6,906 nucleotides of DNA. It comes from a virus. Taxonomy: Duplodnaviria > Heunggongvirae > Uroviricota > Caudoviricetes. Below, one piece after another: positions 1 through 6,906 of the stretch (position 1 is its first letter; each line of letters opens with the position of its first letter). The stretch lies in the IMG/VR virus record IMGVR_UViG_648276671_000005; one strand, given 5' to 3'. The notes under the pieces are model-generated. The model had not been told where the DNA came from and ran no database searches. It was given only the letters and a program-made list of their open reading frames with translations. The translations under genes were made by a program, and so were the position numbers.

Positions 1-218
1 ACGCCGTTAAGCTCAATACCATCACGGCGCATCACCTCAGCAACAACACGCGCGTAATTTTCGGCTATCACGCTGTCCGGCTGCGTGGCCTCCTGTTCGC
101 CAGCCTGCTGGCTGATTCCGGTAATACTGCGGATTATCCCGAGCGCTTCGGTCTCGGTCATGGTCATGGTCATGGTCATGGTCATGGTCATGGTCATGGT
201 CATGGTCATGGCCTCCAT
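1..218 (-). CDS. Partial CDS (3' end beyond window start) of unknown function with an N-terminal (Met-Thr)9 repeat
   Basis: Minus-strand frame is open from ATG at 216-218 to position 3 with no stop (my manual translation: MEA(MT)9ETEALGIIRSITGISQQAGEQEATQPDSVIAENYARVVAEVMRRDGIELNG...). A strong Shine-Dalgarno AAGGAGGA (complement of 231-238) lies 12 nt upstream of the ATG. Same strand as every other gene here. Not in the ORF track because it has no stop in the window. Frame choice is uncertain: five of six frames are open across the repeat. Confidence 0.4.
   Translation of the reverse strand, partial: MEAMTMTMTMTMTMTMTMTMTETEALGIIRSITGISQQAGEQEATQPDSVIAENYARVVAEVMRRDGIELNG
156..209. repeat. 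Perfect tandem hexanucleotide repeat (GGTCAT)9, i.e. (ATGACC)9 on the minus strand
   Basis: Direct reading: nine uninterrupted GGTCAT units at 156-209, flanked by GGTCTC (150-155) and GGC. Encodes (MT)9 in the favoured minus frame, (HD)9 in the ORF-track 37..315 frame, and (GH)/(VM) on the plus strand. Confidence 0.95.
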
Positions 219-454
219 AGTGATGGCGGGTCCTCCTTGTGGGGTGCCCTGCCACGGGGCGGGAGCATCGCGGAAAAAGGCTAGTTTTTGCATTTTTATT
301 CGTCATCACCACCAATGCAATATATTGATATGACTTGATGTTTTATTTTTCGGTGTCGATTTCGATTGTTTTTTGTTCATCACTGACGCATAACGCCCAC
401 CAGCGCAACGCTGAAAGCCAGTCAGTAAACTGGCTTCGGTCATTGTGCACTACG

Positions 455-998
455 TTACTTGTCTTTATCCGGCTGAAACTTATCAGGCACATTTCCGGTA
501 GTTTCCATCAGATAATCGGACAGCATTCGCGGGATGTTTTCATCAAGTTTTGTGCATGCGTTACAGGCTCTGACAACTTCTTTTTTCAGGCCATCCAGCA
601 TGACGGGGGTCATCTGTGGGAAGCTCCTTTGCATAGTAAGCGGGCAGGCTGTCCATGATTGATGAAATCTGACTCGCCAGTTTTGAAAGCGCGTACATGC
701 AAAACTCTGTATCAATCACGTCACCGCGATCGCGCTCGTTTTTAAGTTCCTGCGCCTCCGCCTGTGCTGTCAGTAATCTGATCCTGACTCGTAAGAGTTC
801 ATCATCATCAATCTCGCCTTTGTCGTTTGTAAGCTGGCTAATTGCATTGTTAACCCTATTGTCTATCACGCTGGCAACATCATAAAACGCCTCACGGCCT
901 TTACGTTCAATGGGAGTCACTCCCCACTTGTCGAATGCTGTAGCACTTACCCGGCAGCTTTGCGCCATGGTTTTTTTGTTCATCAGGTGCGATTTCAT
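455..998 (-). pseudogene. Lambda Nu1-like terminase small subunit (terS), interrupted by a +1 frameshift at a C5 run (G5 on plus strand, 605-609)
   Basis: ORF 561..1001 (N-terminal part) contains LTAQAEAQELKNERDRGDVIDTEFCMYALSKLASQISSIMDSLP, matching lambda Nu1 [45 protein letters not shown]. ORF 455..715 in the +1 frame contains MLDGLKKEVVRACNACTKLDENIPRMLSDYLMETTG, matching the Nu1 C-terminus FLKRDIIKAMNKAAALDELIPGLLSEYIEQSG. Removing one C from the run GACCCCCGTCATG joins them into an approximately 178-aa protein (Nu1 is 181 aa). Start taken at ATG 996-998 (MKSHLMNKK...); ATG at 983 is an alternative. Could be a real inactivation or a homopolymer sequencing error. Confidence 0.75.
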
Positions 999-1120
999 CA
1001 ATATCCCAACTTGGTCAAGGTTTCAGGTTGGTGTGTTGGTGTTATCTTTCCCTTTTTATTCATGGAGATAGAGCAAACAACAAAACCACCACCACCACCC
1101 TGAAAAAGCTCATAAATAGC

Positions 1121-1151
1121 GAAAAACCGCGAGGTCGCCGCCCCGTAACGG
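1121..1151. other. Lambda-type cos site (cosN core; 12-nt cohesive-end sequence GGGCGGCGACCT at 1132-1143 on the minus strand)
   Basis: Minus strand reads TTACGGGGCGGCGACCTCGCGGTTTTTCGCTATTTATGA, near-identical to the lambda cosN region GGGCGGCGACCTCGCGGGTTTTCGCTATTTATGAAAA as I recall it. It lies about 135 bp upstream of the Nu1-like gene, as in lambda where cosB separates cosN from Nu1. Confidence 0.75.
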
Positions 1152-1175
1152 GTCCATATGCCGGAAAGGACCCGT

Positions 1176-1198
1176 AAAAAAAGCCGGATTTCTCCGGC
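1176..1198 (-). terminator. Rho-independent terminator after the capsid operon
   Basis: Minus strand: GCCGGA-GAAA-TCCGGC followed by TTTTTTT (A7 at 1176-1182 on plus strand), starting 7 nt past the stop of the 137-aa gene. Confidence 0.7.
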
Positions 1199-1204
1199 CT
1201 TGTC

Positions 1205-1618
1205 TCAGATGGTTTTCAGTATGCGATCGATGTCGCCATCATCGCCCGGGTTTCTGCCAGCGTATGCCATACCAGCTGATACGGCTTTCGGGCTGTGCAT
1301 GTCCATAAAGTTTTCAAAGGCTGCGGTAAGCTCTGGTGCAACCTTCTGGCGTTCCTGCTCTATGGTCATGCTAAGGATGCTTTTAGCCGTACCAACATCG
1401 ATACAAGGCACGTTTGCCATTGCACGTAACAGCGGCTGATAGTCGCCAGATTCATCAAGCGCCATAATCGCATCAGAGCGCGGCTTGTCCTTCTCTTCCA
1501 GGCTGTTAAGTTGATATACGGCCTCGTAGGTTGATAAACCTCTGTCAGCCATTGCCCGCGCTTCGGCCTTAAATTTACTCGCCAGCGGTAGCGTCATGAT
1601 GCTTTCATTCGTTGCCAT
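1205..1618 (-). CDS. Hypothetical protein (137 aa), last gene of the capsid operon
   Basis: ORF-track ORF with SD GAGGGA 5 nt before the ATG (complement of 1619-1630), 12-nt gap after the gpD-like gene, terminator directly downstream. No family recognised by eye; no obvious match to lambda FI. Confidence 0.65.
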   Translation of the reverse strand: MATNESIMTLPLASKFKAEARAMADRGLSTYEAVYQLNSLEEKDKPRSDAIMALDESGDYQPLLRAMANVPCIDVGTAKSILSMTIEQERQKVAPELTAAFENFMDMHSPKAVSAGMAYAGRNPGDDGDIDRILKTI

Positions 1619-1630
1619 CGTTCCCTCTGC

Positions 1631-1966
1631 TTATCGGGCCAGTGGCTGAACGGATACGCCAGAACCCGCAAAGGCGGCGCATTTTTTCGCATCGGTGTCG
1701 ACGCTCTCAGGCCAGTTAACGGCGGCGATATTAAATATCCCCGTCTTATAGCACTGTGCTGATTTCTGCGTCGACGTGTCAACGGGGTACGAGGTCAGAT
1801 AAACAGCCTTGCCAGATTCCTGACCATCCCACGGCTTAAACTCGCCATTGTCCGCCAGCATCAGCGGGGTAAATTCCTGAATAACTCCAGCATCAGCGGC
1901 AAAATGTACCAGCGTCGTGGATACCTGCTGACTGCCTGCAAATAACTCAATGTATGGAGTGTTCAT
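1631..1966 (-). CDS. Head decoration protein, lambda gpD-like (111 aa)
   Basis: TPLMLADNGEFKPWDGQESGKAVYLTSYPVDTSTQKSAQCYKTGIFNIAAVNWPESVDTDAKKCAAFAGSGVSV aligns with lambda gpD [75 protein letters not shown]. Length matches gpD (110 aa). SD GGGGGA upstream. Confidence 0.8.
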   Translation of the reverse strand: MNTPYIELFAGSQQVSTTLVHFAADAGVIQEFTPLMLADNGEFKPWDGQESGKAVYLTSYPVDTSTQKSAQCYKTGIFNIAAVNWPESVDTDAKKCAAFAGSGVSVQPLAR

Positions 1967-1977
1967 AGAATCCCCCG

Positions 1978-3033
1978 TTAAGCAATTTTGACGGTAACAA
2001 ATTTGCGAATATCTGCCGGTACCGGCTGCGGTGCGCTGTGCGTCTGCACGTACTCAATCGCCGGATCGCCATCCTCAATCCAGTTTTTCGGGTAGTACAT
2101 GTTTTGCGTTGCGCCAGTTCTTACCGCTTCCGGATCCATAATCGCACCATAGGCCACCAGCCCTTTATTGTTAGTGTTGCCCAGGACAAGCAAATCAGGC
2201 TCAAGGAAATATTTTTCGGTGCCATCGCTGTCGGTGTATTTGCCGGAATAGACGATAAGGGCCAGATCACCCAGATAGCCTTTAAAGCTCACCACTTCGC
2301 CCAGGTTTTTACAGGCCAGCTCTGCGGCGGATTCTGAACCACGGGAAAGATCGTACAGTTCACGGAATTTTTTAAAGCTGCGTAACGTGCGCCATACCTC
2401 AGCGCCCATAATCATGACGTTGGCGGGGCAACCAGCCTGATCGGTGTATAGTTCGATGTCATAGATTGGATCGTGTGTTTCCTTATCTGCCTCAGACCAC
2501 TTTTTGCCCGATCCCTGCGTAATGATGTTTTTAGTCGGGATTTTCCAGTCGATTTCGTATCTATTTATTCCTTCGCCCTCAATGATGTTTTTTCCGGTCG
2601 TGACCGCATTCACCGCCAGCCATTCTATGCGAGCTTTAATAGCGTTTACCTGGCGGCGCATGTTGCCAGTAATCAGGCGCATACGGCGATAAGTTGGATC
2701 GTTAAGCTGTGCCGGATCTTCTCCAGCCATGCGCATGATGGTTTTTGATGGATCGATTTCGTGTTTTGGTTTCATGTAGCCAGGGCGGATAGTGCTTGTT
2801 TCGTACCCTTTATCGCGCTGAACCTGACTCCCCACCATAGGCGAACAAAAAGCCGACATGGTGACTTCTTCAATATCCAGGGTATCTAACATGATGTCCT
2901 GCGTGTTGAAGGTTGCCACGTTCGGGAAAAACAGCGACGTAAACAGCGGACTGAATTTAAATTCCGAAATATCCCCACGATTCAGGTACGCGAAAAGCTG
3001 GTTAGTGTTAAGTGCCGTTGCTTTGCCTGTCAT
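1978..3033 (-). CDS. Major capsid protein, lambda gpE family (351 aa)
   Basis: Co-linear similarity to lambda gpE across the whole length: FKFSPLF vs FKFDPLF; RPGYMKPKHEI vs TPGYVKPKHEV; EDPAQLNDPTYRRMR vs EDPQNLADPAYRRRR; NIITQGSGKKWSEADKETHDP vs NNITQGSGTEWSKRDKSTYDP; VSFKGYLGDLALIVYSGKY vs VSYKGMYGDVAIVVYSGQY; VLGNTNNKGLVAYG vs VLGNTQARGLRTYG; YPKNWIEDGDPAIEY vs YPKNWVTTGDPAREF. gpE is 341 aa. Confidence 0.9.
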   Translation of the reverse strand: MTGKATALNTNQLFAYLNRGDISEFKFSPLFTSLFFPNVATFNTQDIMLDTLDIEEVTMSAFCSPMVGSQVQRDKGYETSTIRPGYMKPKHEIDPSKTIMRMAGEDPAQLNDPTYRRMRLITGNMRRQVNAIKARIEWLAVNAVTTGKNIIEGEGINRYEIDWKIPTKNIITQGSGKKWSEADKETHDPIYDIELYTDQAGCPANVMIMGAEVWRTLRSFKKFRELYDLSRGSESAAELACKNLGEVVSFKGYLGDLALIVYSGKYTDSDGTEKYFLEPDLLVLGNTNNKGLVAYGAIMDPEAVRTGATQNMYYPKNWIEDGDPAIEYVQTHSAPQPVPADIRKFVTVKIA

Positions 3034-3239
3034 TATTCACCCCCATGAGTCTGATTCATGCCCAGCGCCGCGCGTAAATAGGCGCGTACCTGCCAGCCTG
3101 TTGACGGCTCAACCATCGCCAGCGGCTCAAGTCCTGCCGCAATGCCTGCTTTTACGTTCTGCTGGTGGCGTTCCTTGAGCGCCTCCACGATGTCTGGGCT
3201 TATGTAAACTGTCACCCCGCCTTTTTTCTCTTCTGCCAT
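3033..3239 (-). CDS. Small hypothetical protein (68 aa from ATG at 3239; 79 aa if the GTG at 3272 is used), translationally coupled to the capsid gene
   Basis: Its stop overlaps the gpE-like start as TAATG (3031-3035). The ORF-track start at 3272 is a GTG inside the palindrome; the internal ATG at 3237-3239 (MAEEKKGG...) has a GAGGAA SD upstream and is preferred. No recognisable family. Confidence 0.5.
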   Translation of the reverse strand: MAEEKKGGVTVYISPDIVEALKERHQQNVKAGIAAGLEPLAMVEPSTGWQVRAYLRAALGMNQTHGGE

Positions 3240-3266
3240 AGTCGGAAATTCCTCTTTGACGTTAAA

Positions 3267-3298
3267 AATCACAACTGGATGTTCATCCAGTTGTGATT
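3267..3298. promoter_or_regulatory. 32-bp perfect palindrome (15-bp arms, 2-bp centre): candidate operator or 5'-leader hairpin for the capsid operon
   Basis: AATCACAACTGGATG-TT-CATCCAGTTGTGATT; arms are exact reverse complements, checked base by base. Directly abuts and overlaps the putative -10 element and lies about 30-60 bp upstream of the first capsid-operon start codon. Confidence 0.6.
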
Positions 3299-3323
3299 AT
3301 AATCATGATTTCATTTTACGCAA
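3296..3323 (-). promoter_or_regulatory. Putative sigma70-type promoter for the capsid operon
   Basis: Minus strand: -35 TTGCGT (complement of 3318-3323), 16-nt spacer, -10 TATAAT (complement of 3296-3301); the palindrome begins at the -10 and covers the predicted start-site region. Sequence pattern only. Confidence 0.35.
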
Positions 3324-3408
3324 TAATATTGAGTTGTATTGCAAATTGTGAAATGATTTCCGGCAACAGTAGTCACCATACTGTTAGATAAAAGCCTCAT
3401 ATGCAAAA

Positions 3409-3445
3409 GCCCGATAAGACCCTCTGACCTTATCGGGCTTTTTTT
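3409..3445 (+). terminator. Rho-independent terminator oriented on the plus strand (possibly bidirectional)
   Basis: GCCCGATAAG-(10-nt loop)-CTTATCGGGC followed by TTTTTTT (3439-3445), preceded by AAAA. On the minus strand only TTTT follows the stem. Confidence 0.5.
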
Positions 3446-3452
3446 GGGGCAT

Positions 3453-3474
3453 AAAAAAGCCGGACTTCTCCGGC
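3453..3474 (-). terminator. Rho-independent terminator after the ssb operon
   Basis: Minus strand: GCCGGA-GAAG-TCCGGC followed by TTTTTT, 17 nt past the ssb stop. Nearly identical to the hairpin at 1176-1198 (one loop difference). Confidence 0.7.
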
Positions 3475-3490
3475 TTCTGTTACTCGTTGC

Positions 3491-3913
3491 TTAAAACGGT
3501 ATGTTATCCCCGTACGGATCATCGTTACCCGCCTGTTGTTTTGCCCTGTTCAGTGCGTCAGTAGCCTGCCCTTGCTGGCCTTTTTTGCCGCCCGGTCGCG
3601 CCGTTCTCGCACTGATTACGCTGTCTGCGATAACCTGCCAGCCCTGCCGCGTTTCGCCGTTCTGGCCTGTCCACTGGCTTACCTGCATGTTACCCGCCAC
3701 GCTCACCAGTTCGCCTTTGTGGTGTTTTGCCAGCGCATCGGCCTGTCTGCCAAACGCCAGGACGGATAACCACATCGTCGCCGTTCCGTCATCTGCCTGG
3801 CTGCACGGAAGGGGGACCGCCATACTAGCCATCGTCATTTGTGTACCCTTGCTGGTGGTCTTTAACTGCGGGTCAGCCACCAGCCGCCCGTAAGCCGCTA
3901 TCTGTGCTGTCAT
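3491..3913 (-). CDS. ssb: Single-stranded DNA-binding protein (SSB), 140 aa
   Basis: OB-fold region WLSVLAFGRQADALAKHHKGELVSVAGNMQVSQWTGQNGETRQGWQVIADSV resembles E. coli SSB [52 protein letters not shown]. Gly/Gln-rich linker and acidic C-terminal tail DDPYGDNIPF (compare SSB DFDDDIPF). Confidence 0.85.
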   Translation of the reverse strand: MTAQIAAYGRLVADPQLKTTSKGTQMTMASMAVPLPCSQADDGTATMWLSVLAFGRQADALAKHHKGELVSVAGNMQVSQWTGQNGETRQGWQVIADSVISARTARPGGKKGQQGQATDALNRAKQQAGNDDPYGDNIPF

Positions 3914-4155
3914 GCTGTCTGCTCTCCGGTTTTAACGTTGATGGTTGTCACCTGTTCCGCTTCGGCAATCTCCCGTTCTGTCAGCGTGGCAAAGTTTGCA
4001 GCTGCCGTTGTCATGAATGCGCTAATCAGTTCGGGATGTGCTTTCGCATATCCTTCCCCGGCGTTGCGGTCGATGATTTTTATCGACACTCTTAACCAGT
4101 GTTCCGTCAAATCAAGGGCGTGCGATTGTGATTTTTTTGTGTGCTTCGCTGTCAT
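3910..4155 (-). CDS. Hypothetical protein (81 aa), first gene of the ssb operon
   Basis: ORF-track ORF whose stop overlaps the ssb start as ATGA (3910-3913); sits directly downstream of the iteron/ori region. No family recognised. Confidence 0.55.
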   Translation of the reverse strand: MTAKHTKKSQSHALDLTEHWLRVSIKIIDRNAGEGYAKAHPELISAFMTTAAANFATLTEREIAEAEQVTTINVKTGEQTA

Positions 4156-4202
4156 AGGCTTTATCTCACAGCAGTAAATTAAAATTTTTGCGTTTTAACC
4201 CT

Positions 4203-4430
4203 TCACCTGTTCACCTTTTGATATTTTCCATTTAAATTCATACTGTTAAGTGGTGAACAGTTTCACAAAAACTATTCACCAACTGTTCACCACTGTTCAC
4301 CCTTGAAGCTCAATAAACAACCAAAAAGGTGAACAGTGAATAGTTTGGTGAACAGTTCATAAATAACTGTTCACCCTATAATATACTGATATAAAAGATA
4401 TTTATGACAGGGTGAACAGTGGTGAACAGT
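4203..4430. repeat. Iteron array, putative origin of replication (nine perfect 9-mers GGTGAACAG/CTGTTCACC in both orientations)
   Basis: Forward GGTGAACAG at 4252-4260, 4328-4336, 4347-4355, 4411-4419, 4421-4429; reverse CTGTTCACC at 4207-4215, 4283-4291, 4293-4301, 4367-4375; plus degenerate copies (4273-4280, 4336-4344). Flanked by an AT-rich stretch at about 4170-4250. Starts immediately after the replication-protein stop. The core TGTTCACC is, as I recall, the P4 ori/crr type I iteron bound by P4 alpha. Confidence 0.8.
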
Positions 4431-4442
4431 TATTCCATAAGT

Positions 4443-6260
4443 TTAATTTTTGCTGTCGTCATTAGTGACCGATACACATGATGGCATCCAGTCTTCTGAT
4501 TCCTCCGTCAGTGTCACGTTTGAACGCAAACCGTGCTTCGTTTTCCGTTTCATATACTCCCTGCCATATTCCGCCATTGCCCCCGGCATATCTTTACCGA
4601 AGCGCGTCAGTGTTACAGGTTTACCAAACCCATGTGCCCTCATATAAGCCAGATAGGCATGATAGAGATACCTGCGTGGGCTGAATGGCACAATTTCAGC
4701 ATTACCCACTAACAGGCCATCACACATTACCGACGCCATGAGATAGCCGCAGAAGTCCACCAGCGAATCCCCCTCTCGCTTTATCGCCAGTGCTTCTTCA
4801 GATTTCTGCTGCTCATATAACAGGCGTCTGGCTTCGTCCTGGTCAGCAAACCGTGTAAGCAGATGGCGAATCACTACCGCCAGCTCACCTTCTATTTTTT
4901 CCGCCAGCATTGGATCGCGTTCGTTCTCCGGTACAACTTCCGAAAAATTGAATATCACCCGACGACGTGAGATCCCCCCGCTGCGGTCACTGAATGACAT
5001 GGCGTTATTGTTAACCGCCAGCACTACTGCCGGAATACGCGTTGAGTAGGGGGCTTTGTGTTTCGGGTCAATTGCCACCTTGTCACCGCCTGTAATAGCC
5101 TTAATCCCTGCCCCATCACCAGCGTAGCGGGTCATATCCGGCATGATAATCAGCGAAAAGCCAACCACTAACGCGCGTTCCCTTGCATCTTCCAGCGCCT
5201 TCATGCTTGCCGATACTGTGTTGGCCTTACCCGCCAGCATGGTGCAAATCTCCGCCATCACGCTTTTACCACTTCCCCCTGGACCTGTTACCTCAATGAA
5301 TAACTGCCAGTCGTACCGGTTCGCCAGCACCATGAATAATGCAGCCAGTACGCGATCCGCCTTGCGGTCATTCTCAGCCACCGAACGGCGTAACCACTTC
5401 CAGAAATTCGGCGCATGTGTTGCCAGCGTTTCCCCCTCTGCTGGTGGGCTGAAAGGTAATTCACTGGCAATTAACAACCAGTCGTTTTTGTTATGCTCCC
5501 GAAAATTACCTGTTCTGGTATCAAATACCCCGTTACTGAATCCAATCAGGTTACGGGCTGTATTCCCCATTACAGGCAAACTTAACTTCATGGTATCGAC
5601 CGCCGATTTAATGGCGTTCTGCGAATAGCTGATCTCCGCATCAATGAAAATCTGCGCCATAGCTCGCTGTAATTCTTTATCCTGTACTGGCTCCCATACA
5701 ACGCCGTTGTAATGGTGAACAGTGTCAGAGTCAGCATGAATCGCCAGTTCACCGCCATAATGTGCCAGGAGAACTTCGCCGCGTTGACTTGCTCCCATCT
5801 GGTTAAGCGCCAGTGATGAAGCGTTATCGTCTTTTACCCGCTCTTTTTTCTTTACAGGCAGTTCAACTACCTTTTTCTTTTCCGCCAGCTCTGCCCGTTC
5901 ACGTTCCAGATATTCGCGCCAGTTCTCCCGTTTCTGGCTGTGCATTCCTTCAGGATAATAATCAGCATCCCTGACACCTGCCGCTGCCAGTTTCTGCCCG
6001 ATGGTATTAACAAGCCCCGGACGCAATAACCCCGCCTGATAGAGACGCACGCGATAGCGTCCGTCCGGTACGATTTGCAGGTTGTCCAGTTCGGCAAGTT
6101 GTTGCTCTCCAAGCCAGACAGGAGGCACGTTATCGCCAGCCAGTCGCCCGTCCTGTTCCTGCCACTGCTTCGCATGTGCCCACGCATCACTACCCGCAAA
6201 AATGATGACTTCCGTCATTTTGTCACGTGGCTGGTGTTTTAAATTTGGCGCTTTTTTCAT
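4443..6260 (-). CDS. P4 alpha-like replication protein (D5-N / SF3 helicase, putative primase-helicase and origin-binding protein), 605 aa from ATG 6260
   Basis: Walker A motif GPGGSGKS (in EVTGPGGSGKSVMAEI) and Walker B-like LVVGFSLIIMPD; size and layout typical of phage/plasmid P4-family primase-helicases; iterons immediately downstream. The ORF-track start at 6275 is GTG; the ATG at 6258-6260 (MKKAPNLKHQ...) overlaps the upstream stop as ATGA and has a GGAG SD. Confidence 0.85.
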   Translation of the reverse strand: MKKAPNLKHQPRDKMTEVIIFAGSDAWAHAKQWQEQDGRLAGDNVPPVWLGEQQLAELDNLQIVPDGRYRVRLYQAGLLRPGLVNTIGQKLAAAGVRDADYYPEGMHSQKRENWREYLERERAELAEKKKVVELPVKKKERVKDDNASSLALNQMGASQRGEVLLAHYGGELAIHADSDTVHHYNGVVWEPVQDKELQRAMAQIFIDAEISYSQNAIKSAVDTMKLSLPVMGNTARNLIGFSNGVFDTRTGNFREHNKNDWLLIASELPFSPPAEGETLATHAPNFWKWLRRSVAENDRKADRVLAALFMVLANRYDWQLFIEVTGPGGSGKSVMAEICTMLAGKANTVSASMKALEDARERALVVGFSLIIMPDMTRYAGDGAGIKAITGGDKVAIDPKHKAPYSTRIPAVVLAVNNNAMSFSDRSGGISRRRVIFNFSEVVPENERDPMLAEKIEGELAVVIRHLLTRFADQDEARRLLYEQQKSEEALAIKREGDSLVDFCGYLMASVMCDGLLVGNAEIVPFSPRRYLYHAYLAYMRAHGFGKPVTLTRFGKDMPGAMAEYGREYMKRKTKHGLRSNVTLTEESEDWMPSCVSVTNDDSKN

Positions 6261-6556
6261 TTCTGCTCTCTCCACGCGGCAATCATGTTTTTCAGTTCCT
6301 GTAGTTTTTTATCCACATTCACACGTGACACATGGTTATTTCTGGAAAGCGGGATTTCCCGCCTGAATCTGCTAATAAAGATCTCCACGTTCAGCGAACT
6401 ATGAAATGAATAGCCATCACGAATAAAATACACACGGTCAAACATTATCGATTTTACTGTTACTCTGTTGCCGTTCTTATCCCGATAAATAGCGCCGGGG
6501 ATAATTTTGGGATGTGCATAACCGCTGGCAGTCAAGCCAGATAAATACGTTCTCAT
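6257..6556 (-). CDS. Hypothetical protein (99 aa), translationally coupled to the replication gene
   Basis: ORF-track ORF with ATG at 6554-6556, SD GGGGA about 9 nt upstream; stop overlaps the replication-protein ATG (ATGA). Unknown function. Confidence 0.55.
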   Translation of the reverse strand: MRTYLSGLTASGYAHPKIIPGAIYRDKNGNRVTVKSIMFDRVYFIRDGYSFHSSLNVEIFISRFRREIPLSRNNHVSRVNVDKKLQELKNMIAAWREQK

Positions 6557-6562
6557 GATTAT

Positions 6563-6906
6563 TTATCCCCGATTTGAATCAGTATTCGCTTTCTTTATGG
6601 CATTTAATGCATCTGTGGCATTTTCAATGGTGCACCGTAACGAAATATCAAAATGTCCAAGCATTGCCAGTAACAAACCGATATTACCCATATCAATGCG
6701 CATGGCCTTTTCGTCATAGTCCTCATTTTCTGACGCATGCCACATCAGGCTACCAATTGACGCAACGGCCATTGATATATTGTCAGTCGCCCCATCCGCA
6801 GCGGAATAAACCTTTTTAGCAATATCATGCTCACAGTTAAAATGCGGATTAATCAGGTACTGGTAATTTGACATATCAGGCAAGTGGCACACCCCCTGAC
6901 GAATAC
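6563..6906 (-). CDS. Hypothetical protein, probably 5'-partial (frame open to the window edge)
   Basis: ORF-track ORF 6563..6892 begins at a GTG; the same frame has no stop through 6906, so the true start may lie beyond the window or at the internal ATG 6872-6874. Unknown function. Confidence 0.4.
   Translation of the reverse strand, partial: IRQGVCHLPDMSNYQYLINPHFNCEHDIAKKVYSAADGATDNISMAVASIGSLMWHASENEDYDEKAMRIDMGNIGLLLAMLGHFDISLRCTIENATDALNAIKKANTDSNRG

Follow-up and report, generated by a model that had tools for sequence, protein, structure and literature searches.

A published type of Escherichia coli PICI combines a P4-like replication module with lambda-like cos, terS and capsid genes

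A P4-like replication module stands next to lambda-like cos, small terminase and capsid genes in a 6,906-nt stretch of DNA (the whole of which was analysed and is called the window here). This combination raises the question of whether the locus represents a satellite of a new kind, as the first-pass annotation had proposed on the grounds that it did not recognize such an arrangement from described P4-like, phage-inducible chromosomal island (PICI) or cf-PICI families. The window covers the half of a classical Escherichia coli PICI that runs from replication to packaging; PICIs of this kind, described since 2018, are satellites of lambda-like phages. Its arrangement is real and already published, and is thus not new, because its genes are ordered as in EcCICFT073, an E. 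coli PICI described earlier. The sequence comparisons further suggest, with a probability of about 0.9, that the window comprises the right-hand two thirds of a classical Gram-negative PICI of the EcCICFT073/EcCIIHE3034 family, of the TerS-encoding type named 'PICI Type A' by SatelliteFinder. The features of the window are listed in Table 1.

Table 1. Features of the window
Feature	Coordinates	Strand	Evidence or description
orf109, conserved island gene	6563..6892	-	phrog_15327, E 5.6e-71
DUF4222 protein	6257..6556	-	Pfam PF13973, E 3e-18; 3' end overlaps pri start
Pri/Rep, 610 aa	4443..6275	-	Toprim-like domain (residues 1-146), D5_N, SF3 helicase, P4-alpha-type origin-binding winged helix
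Replication origin	4208..4428	.	9 exact TGTTCACC iterons and 1 one-mismatch copy, both orientations, in AT-rich spacer directly downstream of pri
orf81, conserved	3910..4155	-	phrog_1231, E 2e-49
Single-stranded DNA-binding protein (SSB)	3491..3913	-	Pfam SSB, E 4e-16; TIGR00621
Two terminator-like hairpins closing the replication operon	3405..3478	-	folds of -16 kcal/mol (z -3.9) and -23.1 kcal/mol (z -4.5), with a U-run after each
Perfect 15-bp palindrome with U-run, right after TATAAT, ahead of the capsid operon	3267..3298	-	fold -20.8 kcal/mol, z -6.0
Small ORF, first in capsid operon, 68 aa from the relatives' ATG	3033..3239	-	phrog_3255, E 1e-42
Major capsid homologue, lambda gpE family	1978..3033	-	PF03864 (Phage_cap_E), E 3e-52
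Head decoration homologue, lambda gpD family	1631..1966	-	PF02924 (HDPD), E 3e-18
orf137 (137 aa), homologue of lambda scaffold Nu3/gpC C-terminal domain	1205..1618	-	phrog_1999, E 7e-62
Terminator-like hairpin closing the capsid operon, touching cosQ	1172..1197	-	fold -18.6 kcal/mol, z -3.5, then U7
cos1	1128..1173	-	cosQ GGGTCCT (1173-1167) and cosN GGGCGGCGACCT (1143-1132), identical to lambda and to EcCICFT073 cos1
Putative island-specific cosB	1002..1101	-	GGTGG run at bp 45-58 from nick
Small terminase gene terS, Nu1 family	455..1001	-	PF07471, phrog_57; split by +1 frameshift near 645
cos2-like site, in the opposite orientation to the genes	224..387	+	GGGTCCT-N22-ACG/GGGCGGGAGCAT/CGCG, core 228-272, with ~115 nt of phage-like flank
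Last island ORF, 5' part only, leaves window	1..221	-	phrog_1561 family, assigned through homologues; 79% identical to IHE3034 homologue

All ten ORFs of the window lie on the minus strand, and the co-directional block of a P4-like alpha-type helicase, iterons and the island's own SSB was confirmed by Pfam and PDB matches and by exact iterons. Pri/Rep matched D5_N, DUF5906 and Pox_D5 in Pfam; its residues 150-600 are 50.7% identical to residues 320-771 of P4 alpha, and residues 502-598 matched the P4 alpha origin-binding domain (PDB 1KA8, E 1.8e-24). The earlier description of this protein needs one correction, as the P4 alpha primase domain (residues 1-319) is missing and a 146-aa Toprim-like domain is found instead. 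The iteron TGTTCACC is the octamer of the P4 ori/crr type-1 repeats, all 11 exact P4 copies of which are located in crr and ori, and its total in the window was matched by none of 200 shuffles. Its place directly downstream of the replication gene resembles that of P4 crr, and the EcCICFT073 ori downstream of pri has been shown to be functional (PMC6092414). The DUF4222 gene occupies an equivalent position in EcCICFT073, Nissle, O157 and IHE3034-type islands, and orf109 had no match in Pfam, NCBIfam or PADLOC.

Purifying selection acts on the gpE-like, gpD-like and Nu3-C-terminal-like genes, which are organized as one operon. The first two had been recognized before as a capsid and decoration pair, which the Phage_cap_E and HDPD matches bear out, and the corresponding EcCICFT073 genes (c1499 and c1500) have been described (PMC6092414). 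The capsid protein shares 43% identity with lambda E along its whole length and no more than 47% with any phage capsid, which argues against a recent capture, and it is 94% identical to c1499 (dN/dS 0.10-0.14). The decoration protein is 37% identical to lambda D and 96% identical to c1500 (dN/dS 0.05-0.11), and the small ORF is 93% identical to its EcCICFT073 homologue (dN/dS 0.2-0.3). The absence of portal, protease and large terminase genes from the window, as initially reported, still holds; the reported absence of a scaffold does not, since orf137 is a homologue of the Nu3 C-terminal domain. Residues 117-200 of lambda Nu3 also match phrog_1999 (E 2.7e-26), tblastn aligned orf137 with a phage-21-type Nu3 (36% identity, E 2e-4), and the EcCICFT073 homologue of orf137 is 95% identical. 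The palindrome ahead of the operon, a putative operator or leader terminator, is kept in five related islands, and the EcCICFT073 copy has changed once, on both sides.

On the packaging side, the cosN core, previously called near-exact, proved to be exact, and the small terminase is Nu1-like once its reading frame is repaired. An 80-nt stretch at cos1 is 84% identical to lambda cos, and similarity to both lambda and EcCICFT073 ends about 30 nt past cosN. The adjoining putative cosB, which may be bound by TerS, moves with terS as one cassette that is present in 766 of the 5426 complete E. coli genomes; parts of the window were matched in 2697 of them. The break in terS is a 1-nt insertion private to the window copy, which corrects the first reading, and a 99.7%-identical allele lacks the frameshift, which represents either a read error or a broken TerS route. 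The repaired TerS (180 aa) is 36% identical to Nu1 (E 3e-34) and 47% identical to N15 gp1, and its full-length alignment with these proteins includes the C-terminal TerL-binding part. Compared with lambda, cosQ and cosN are identical, whereas the lambda cosB (R3-I1-R2-R1) is unrelated to the putative cosB of the window, terL is absent, and E precedes D in the island but follows it in lambda. Moreover, a site missed in the first reading lies downstream of terS and belongs to another lambdoid packaging class: this cos2-like site is 86-88% identical to the segment immediately upstream of terS in the lambdoid phages mEp460 and phi458. Related islands have a second inverted cos at the equivalent position, and both cos1 and cos2 have been published for EcCICFT073 (PMC6092414).

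No integrase, alpA or att site was found within the 6,906-nt window, and its PICI membership is based on relatives with 96-99% identity. The integrase and alpA genes are present in these relatives, outside the part corresponding to the window. The satellite character that the first-pass annotation had inferred is supported by near-identical and related loci (98.8% and 95.9% DNA identity), which are islands of about 11 kb. They encode a tyrosine integrase and an AlpA-type regulator and contain direct repeats that are imperfect. The complete relatives (about 11.3 kb), which lie between phoQ and roxA, follow the order int-alpA-pri-capsid-terS. An alpA-type HTH gene and an icd-like gene occur in them besides int, DUF4222, pri, ssb and the capsid, decoration and terS genes, and imperfect repeats of 58 nt, separated by 11,278 bp, mark their ends. 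Portal, terL, tail and lysis genes are absent from these islands, and a search of phage records found none that holds the whole block; these results therefore give no sign of a full lambdoid prophage. PICI families have been defined in several studies (PMC6092414, PMC6739421, PMC10085698, PMC10111431). SatelliteFinder 'Type A' consists of int, alpA, pri-rep, capsid and terS, with 97% of such elements in E. coli (PMC10085698), and 21 of 29 reference Gram-negative PICIs have a capsid gene (PMC10111431). Together with EcCICFT073 and the IHE3034 island, these data contradict the claim that described families lack this arrangement.

Strain IHE3034 carries the TerS-encoding E. coli PICI EcCIIHE3034 (Fillol-Salom et al. 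2018, PMC6092414), which has the same order of pri, small ORF, SSB, small ORF, capsid, decoration, 137-aa ORF, cos, terS and last ORF. Its DNA is 90.6% identical to the window over 2994 nt that correspond to the capsid operon, cos1, cosB and terS, and protein identities reach 87% for TerS, 93% for the capsid, 97% for decoration and 91% for SSB. It differs from the window in an attachment site near clpS, a pri-ori allele with GGTAGACA-type rather than TGTTCACC iterons, a cos2 segment other than the mEp460 type, and an intact terS. With resident prophages, the IHE3034 and 18098 islands yielded at most 110 transductants (PMC6092414). EcCICFT073, the model Gram-negative PICI (PMC6092414, PMC6739421), is located at phoQ/roxA, a site shared with the relatives of the window, and resembles the window in overall gene order, in two inverted cos sites around a packaging-specificity gene and in the ori downstream of pri. 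A stretch that begins ahead of the capsid operon and extends through cosN is 92.3% identical in DNA, and protein identities outside that operon are 88% for orf81 (as in IHE3034), 71% for SSB and 49% for Pri. The place of rppA (144 aa, redirecting the helper TerS) in EcCICFT073 is taken in the window by a Nu1-type terS of full length, and similarity between the two genes was undetectable. Further differences of EcCICFT073 include its cosB, a perC gene, another iteron for Pri, and a lambda-type cos2 instead of one of the mEp460/phi458 class.

Several other explanations were weighed against a classical PICI. The first-pass annotation had favoured a cos satellite of a new class, with a shell assembled from its own gpE-, gpD- and scaffold-like proteins and with portal and tails taken from the helper. 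The operon with a full-length HK97-fold capsid gene, its conservation and its distance from phage capsids are in keeping with this idea, and the published deletions concern EcCICFT073 and not a TerS-type island. On the other hand, the architecture is that of a published classical PICI, the portal, protease and terL genes of capsid-forming PICIs (cf-PICIs) are absent, and deletion of c1499 or c1500 from EcCICFT073, with 94-96% identity to the capsid genes of the window, had no effect on transfer or interference, the island being found in phage-sized heads (PMC6092414). An own shell is thus not established, and this explanation appears unlikely. A decayed lambdoid prophage retaining only head and terminase genes could account for the lambda-family genes, the lambda cos and the frameshifted terS, but it is very unlikely: the relatives form separate islands of 11.3 kb that have an integrase and repeats of their own and sit at sites shared with PICIs, the order E-D-scaffold-cos-terS differs from that of lambda, the capsid genes are distant from those of all phages yet conserved, at low dN/dS, from island to island, a replicon of its own belongs to the element, and the same layout occurs in hundreds of genomes.

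A P4-like satellite depending on a P2-type helper would explain the helicase and origin-binding part, the identical iterons, and the distant P4-type integrase and ORF88/AlpA homologue of the relatives. It is nevertheless extremely improbable, as tblastn detected no homologues of sid, psu, delta, epsilon or cI in the window or a complete relative, no copy of the 19-nt P2/P4 cohesive end is present (best match with 7 mismatches), and capsid, decoration, terS and cos are of lambdoid type; P4 membership was thereby rejected. That the window belongs to a cf-PICI has almost no probability. Such elements, including EcCIEDL933 (bioRxiv 10.1101/2022.09.08.507074), are alike on the int-alpA-rep side and also carry capsid and terS, and a related Pri (74.5% identical) occurs in the cf-PICI-like record vB_KppS-Ant. 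In contrast to the window and its complete relatives, cf-PICIs encode portal, protease, head-tail connectors, HNH and TerL and build their own small capsids, and the vB_KppS-Ant capsid is of a different, HK97-precursor type. Membership was refuted by the missing core genes.

For the classical PICI, a life cycle can be proposed from homology. A lambdoid helper would switch on alpA and cause integrase-driven excision, as shown in EcCICFT073. Pri would then be loaded at the iterons downstream of its own gene through the P4-alpha-type origin-binding domain, an anatomy that is seen in the window, and together with the island SSB would replicate the island into concatemers. The Nu1-type TerS may bind the putative cosB beside the lambda-identical cosQ and cosN and recruit the gpA-type large terminase of the helper through its Nu1-like C-terminus. 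After cleavage at cosN, the island DNA would enter heads made by the helper, which would also provide portal, protease, connectors and tails, and the inverted cos2-like site may permit packaging by another lambdoid lineage.

Two minor features were also observed. The hairpin motif that closes the capsid operon recurs after SSB in L002 (repeat D4). In addition, the last ORF contains an (ATGACC)9 repeat at 156-209, translated as MEA(MT)9ETEALG..., with nine copies in the window versus three in AR_0077.

Judged by its sequence and gene content, the window is the replication-to-packaging part of a classical Gram-negative phage-inducible chromosomal island (PICI), in the sense of Fillol-Salom 2018 and of PICI Type A in SatelliteFinder. 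The first-pass annotation, in which a P4-type replication module was seen joined to lambda-type cos, terS and capsid genes in one co-directional block, is confirmed with four corrections. All 10 ORFs, whose families were assigned with Pfam and PHROGs, lie on the minus strand. Features of classical PICIs found in the window include a primase-replicase gene that precedes an iteron origin, a small terminase gene with a helper-type cos (though terS is frameshifted here) and a major capsid homologue. Outside the window, a tyrosine integrase adjoining roxA and attachment repeats were found in relatives of 96-99% identity, and relatives also encode an HTH product 47% identical to P4 ORF88. The latter is the excisionase/transcriptional regulator of P4, and its homologue in the relatives was taken by us as the AlpA-type regulator. 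Complete relatives measure ~11.3 kb, within the ~10-15 kb of classical PICIs.

Features of the replication-to-packaging region (window positions)
Feature	Position	Strand	Family
orf109	6892-6563	-	phrog_15327
DUF4222 protein	6556-6257	-	
Pri (replication protein), 610 aa	6275-4443	-	
Iteron-bearing AT-rich spacer	4428-4208		
orf81	4155-3910	-	
SSB	3913-3491	-	
Terminator-like hairpins (two)	3478-3405	-	
Small ORF	3239-3033	-	
Capsid gene, gpE family	3033-1978	-	PF03864
Decoration gene, gpD family	1966-1631	-	
orf137	1618-1205	-	phrog_1999
Terminator-like hairpin	1197-1172	-	
cosQ + cosN (cos1)	1173-1128	-	
terS, Nu1 family	1001-455	-	
cos2-like site (core 228-272)	224-387	+	
Last ORF, continues beyond the window edge	from 221	-	

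Parts of the window were detected by megablast in 2697 of 5426 complete E. coli genomes, 13 of which cover at least 80% of it (best identity 98.8%). In strain CFIAFB20120266, the block (95.9% identity) lies inside an island between phoQ and roxA, which carries genes for a tyrosine integrase, an HTH regulator, an Icd-like protein and a DUF4222 protein, together with pri, ssb, capsid, decoration, orf137, terS and the last ORF, and has imperfect direct repeats of 58 nt at its boundaries, 11,278 bp apart. Islands of the same kind are present in Nissle 1917 and O157:H7, and the phoQ/roxA attachment site is common to these and to EcCICFT073, the model Gram-negative PICI of strain CFT073. Neither the window nor the complete relatives contain portal, terL, tail or lysis genes. 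The proposal that the block belongs to a satellite is thus supported by the relatives, in which the integrase, repeats and island size that the annotation had suggested looking for in the flanks were recovered; no phage record carries the block, the placement that had been named as counter-evidence. On the other hand, the suggestion that the arrangement is new does not hold, since EcCICFT073 has the same gene order and such islands have already been described (Fillol-Salom 2018/2019; de Sousa 2023; PMC10111431). The PICI core comprises int, a regulator, pri-rep, capsid morphogenesis genes and terS (de Sousa et al. 2023, PMC10085698), and 97% of elements that contain all five core genes occur in E. 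coli (PMC10085698).

The replication side could be assigned in some detail. Pri has the Pfam domains D5_N, DUF5906 and Pox_D5, and its residues 150-600 share 50.7% identity with residues 320-771 of P4 alpha; the P4-family primase C-terminal NCBIfam model scored under its cut-off. Residues 502-598 match PDB 1KA8, the solved origin-binding domain of P4 alpha (E 1.8e-24). The N-terminus was modelled from a shallow alignment, the homologue search having returned close enterobacterial fragments only. In the spacer downstream of pri, the octamer TGTTCACC occurs in nine exact copies and one copy with a single mismatch, in both orientations, and its window-wide count was equalled by none of 200 shuffles. 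In the P4 genome, all 11 exact copies of the octamer fall within crr, just downstream of alpha, and ori. These iterons, together with the matches to alpha and 1KA8, speak for a genuine P4-type replication module, and the claim that the element has its own SSB is likewise upheld by Pfam and NCBIfam. Iteron-bearing stretches were also compared between the window (4208-4428), the EcCICFT073 locus L003 (3990-4290) and two loci of related islands (L013, 515-815; L007, 16915-17210). Among related PICIs, the pri-ori cassette has two or more specificity alleles, with TGTTCACC used in the window and in the related island L002 and GGTAGACA in the islands of CFT073, IHE3034 and Nissle. Because the iteron of the window is identical to that of P4, cross-talk or incompatibility with P4 is possible.

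EcCICFT073 occupies the phoQ/roxA site with the gene order of the CFIAFB20120266 island. Its protein identity to the window is 94% for the capsid (c1499), 96% for decoration, 95% for orf137 and 93% for the small ORF, and 88%, 71% and 49% for orf81, SSB and Pri, respectively. At the DNA level, a stretch of 92.3% identity begins upstream of the capsid operon, includes cosN and breaks off at the very point beyond which EcCICFT073 has its own cosB and rppA, whereas the window has another cosB and terS. The TerS-encoding IHE3034 island is 90.6% identical to window 3444-454 over 2994 nt, terS included, and 766 of the 5426 complete genomes carry the cosB-terS cassette. In strain AR_0077 (locus L012, NZ_CP026755.1), the segment with terS, cos2 and the last ORF is 99.7-100% identical to the window, whereas the capsid/decoration pair is a different one, an HTH/excisionase-like gene replaces orf137, the replicase is of the DUF927 type and the attachment site is clpS-cspD. 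This mixture of shared and different segments shows module exchange among islands.

At the packaging site preceding terS (cos1), the cosN core, previously described as near-exact, proved to be exact (GGGCGGCGACCT at 1143-1132) and is accompanied by cosQ (GGGTCCT at 1173-1167), both being identical to lambda. An 80-nt stretch shares 84% identity with lambda nt 48468 to 45, and this similarity ends ~30 nt past the nick, indicating that the cosB of the window differs. In the adjacent putative cosB, bp 45-58 from the cos1 nick are occupied by a GGTGG run, at the distance from the nick at which R3 is located in lambda and N15 (PMC9026076). At 1079-1100, GGGTGGTGGTGGTGG occupies the lambda/N15 R3 position, and cos1 of EcCICFT073 (L003 ~7600-7630) has the inverse, CACCACCACCAC; these might be the recognition sites of TerS and RppA, respectively.

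The assignment of terS as a Nu1-like small terminase is correct over the full length of the protein, but the gene is frameshifted in this copy. A single extra base near 645 (CTGCCCGCTT vs CT-CCGCTT-type alleles) breaks it into two ORFs, and its removal yields a protein of 180 aa that aligns end-to-end with lambda Nu1 (36% identity, E 3e-34); the alignment also covers the C-terminal region by which the lambda protein binds TerL. The closest phage relative of the repaired protein is N15 gp1 (47% identity). In the frameshifted gene, the N-terminal product measures 146 aa and the C-terminus is out of frame, and the truncated TerS would be devoid of the TerL-binding end. The AR_0077 allele is intact and 99.7% identical, so the frameshift is private to this sequence; over window 1-1149, one SNP, the terS indel and 36 nt within a hexanucleotide repeat are the sole differences between the two. 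The frameshift reflects a sequencing error or else a lesion that recently inactivated the gene. The truncated TerS is close in length to RppA (144 aa).

Downstream of terS, a second cos-like site (cos2) is inverted with respect to the genes. It consists of GGGTCCT-N22-ACG, GGGCGGGAGCAT and CGCG in succession, plus ~115 nt, with the cosQ-to-cosN spacing of lambda. The segment is 86-88% identical to the stretch just upstream of terS in the lambdoid phages mEp460 and phi458, whose TerS shows no relation to Nu1 by BLAST, and no second lambda-type cosN was found in the window at up to 3 mismatches beyond chance. cos2 of the window is of a type other than that of lambda. An inverted second cos occupies this position in all related islands compared; four of them carry a lambda-type site, the window and AR_0077 an mEp460-type one. 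EcCICFT073 also has two cos sites, with ori after pri (PMC6092414). The element is an ordinary member of a family of satellites, known since 2018, that occurs commonly in E. coli, and its value lies in being a well-resolved case of modular shuffling within the PICI family, in which a P4-specificity pri/ori allele, an EcCICFT073-type capsid operon, an IHE3034-type cosB-terS cassette and a heterologous second cos are combined.

The gpE-like and gpD-like pair was verified by Pfam matches and by identity to lambda gpE (43%, full length) and gpD (37%); identity of the capsid protein to any phage capsid of the collection is at most 47%. Purifying selection acts on both genes (dN/dS 0.10-0.14 for capsid and 0.05-0.11 for decoration). 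Portal, protease and large terminase are indeed absent from the window according to Pfam and PHROGs, but the reported absence of a scaffold needs revision. The product of orf137 belongs to phrog_1999 (E 7e-62), which is also matched by residues 117-200 of lambda Nu3, corresponding to the gpC C-terminus as well (E 2.7e-26), and its residues 49-131 are 36% identical to the Nu3 region of phage-21-type phages (tblastn, E 2e-4). These matches identify orf137 as a homologue of the C-terminal ~85 residues of the lambda scaffold Nu3/gpC, a homology of which no mention was found in the PICI papers. In relatives, orf137 is annotated as 'hypothetical' or 'head-tail connector'.

Several other assignments were considered and rejected. 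In the window and a complete relative, tblastn with all P4 proteins matched nothing but residues 320-771 of alpha, a distantly related int and ORF88; sid, psu, delta, epsilon and a P2-type cos were not found, and the best match to the P2/P4 19-nt cohesive end in the window has 7 mismatches of 19, which argues against a P4-like satellite. The island has capsid and decoration genes, and the portal, protease, head-tail connectors, HNH and TerL of a cf-PICI are absent from the window and the complete relatives. Against a prophage remnant, the block is in no phage record, the islands are discrete and recurrent, and the capsid and decoration genes are under purifying selection. EcCICFT073 RppA redirects the helper TerS (PMC6739421), Rpp proteins of this packaging type forming heterodimers with it. 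Identity of the terS product with an Rpp protein was rejected: RppA has no BLAST match in the window, a search of the TerS sequence against the RppC chains in PDB gave no real match, and the gene is a full-length Nu1 homologue.

For a classical PICI, experiments in EcCICFT073 provide the model. A lambdoid helper would turn on alpA, followed by island excision and replication from the pri-ori cassette, and the helper terminase would package concatemers at cos into helper heads. In the present island, the specificity factor would be a full Nu1-type TerS, presumably acting on the adjacent island-specific cosB, and its Nu1-like C-terminus is predicted to recruit the helper TerL. Helper-dependent induction, packaging and high-frequency transfer have been demonstrated for EcCICFT073 only (PMC6092414, PMC6739421), and no efficient helper was found for the TerS-encoding islands of IHE3034 and 18098 (PMC6092414).

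A major capsid gene is present in 21 of 29 reference Gram-negative PICIs (PMC10111431). EcCICFT073 goes into phage-sized capsids (PMC6739421), and deletion of its putative capsid gene c1499 or head decoration gene c1500 altered neither interference nor transfer (PMC6092414), in tests that covered the Rpp-type EcCICFT073 only, with lambda, phi80 and its resident prophage. On a role for the gpE-like genes of PICIs, a search of the literature from 2022 on gave nothing beyond these 2018 deletions. This raises the question of why capsid, decoration and scaffold-like genes are retained by most Gram-negative PICIs, when the one model tested can dispense with them. It seems improbable, although conceivable, that TerS-type classical PICIs are intermediate capsid formers, in which, with the true helper, the conserved operon of gpE-like, gpD-like and Nu3-C-terminal-like genes builds or remodels the shell around the helper portal and protease, and are in addition mobilised through two cos sites by two lambdoid lineages. 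In the dual-cos part of that reading, a lambda/N15-type cos1 with its own TerS may be paired with an mEp460/phi458-type cos2.

Additional scans yielded little. No Rfam score came near any gathering threshold and no tRNA was detected in the window, PADLOC gave no match for nine window proteins, and with NCBIfam, SSB alone exceeded the cut-off and the small ORFs received no names. Pfam at E up to 10 gave nothing useful for orf137, the Pri N-terminus, orf79, orf81 and orf109. The hairpins were found by RNA folding and had been missed by a simple promoter/terminator scan. A perfect 15-bp palindrome with a U-run (3267-3298) lies between a -10-like TATAAT (~3302-3297) and the capsid operon. It is conserved across five related islands, the EcCICFT073 version carrying one change on both sides, and may serve as operator or leader terminator in the control of late expression.

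In strain A33 (locus L001, NZ_CP028742.1 4253978-4284487), three tandem islands of this kind occur at a spacing of ~10.6 kb, and each possesses an integrase of its own. Many of their genes are flagged as frameshifted, which suggests an assembly of low accuracy. In the last ORF (minus-strand start 221), the hexanucleotide repeat (ATGACC)9 at 156-209 lengthens the N-terminus (MEA(MT)9...), and each unit brings one in-frame ATG. In AR_0077 there are 3 copies, and the span is 36 nt shorter in many near-identical genome copies, so the ATGACC copy number varies.
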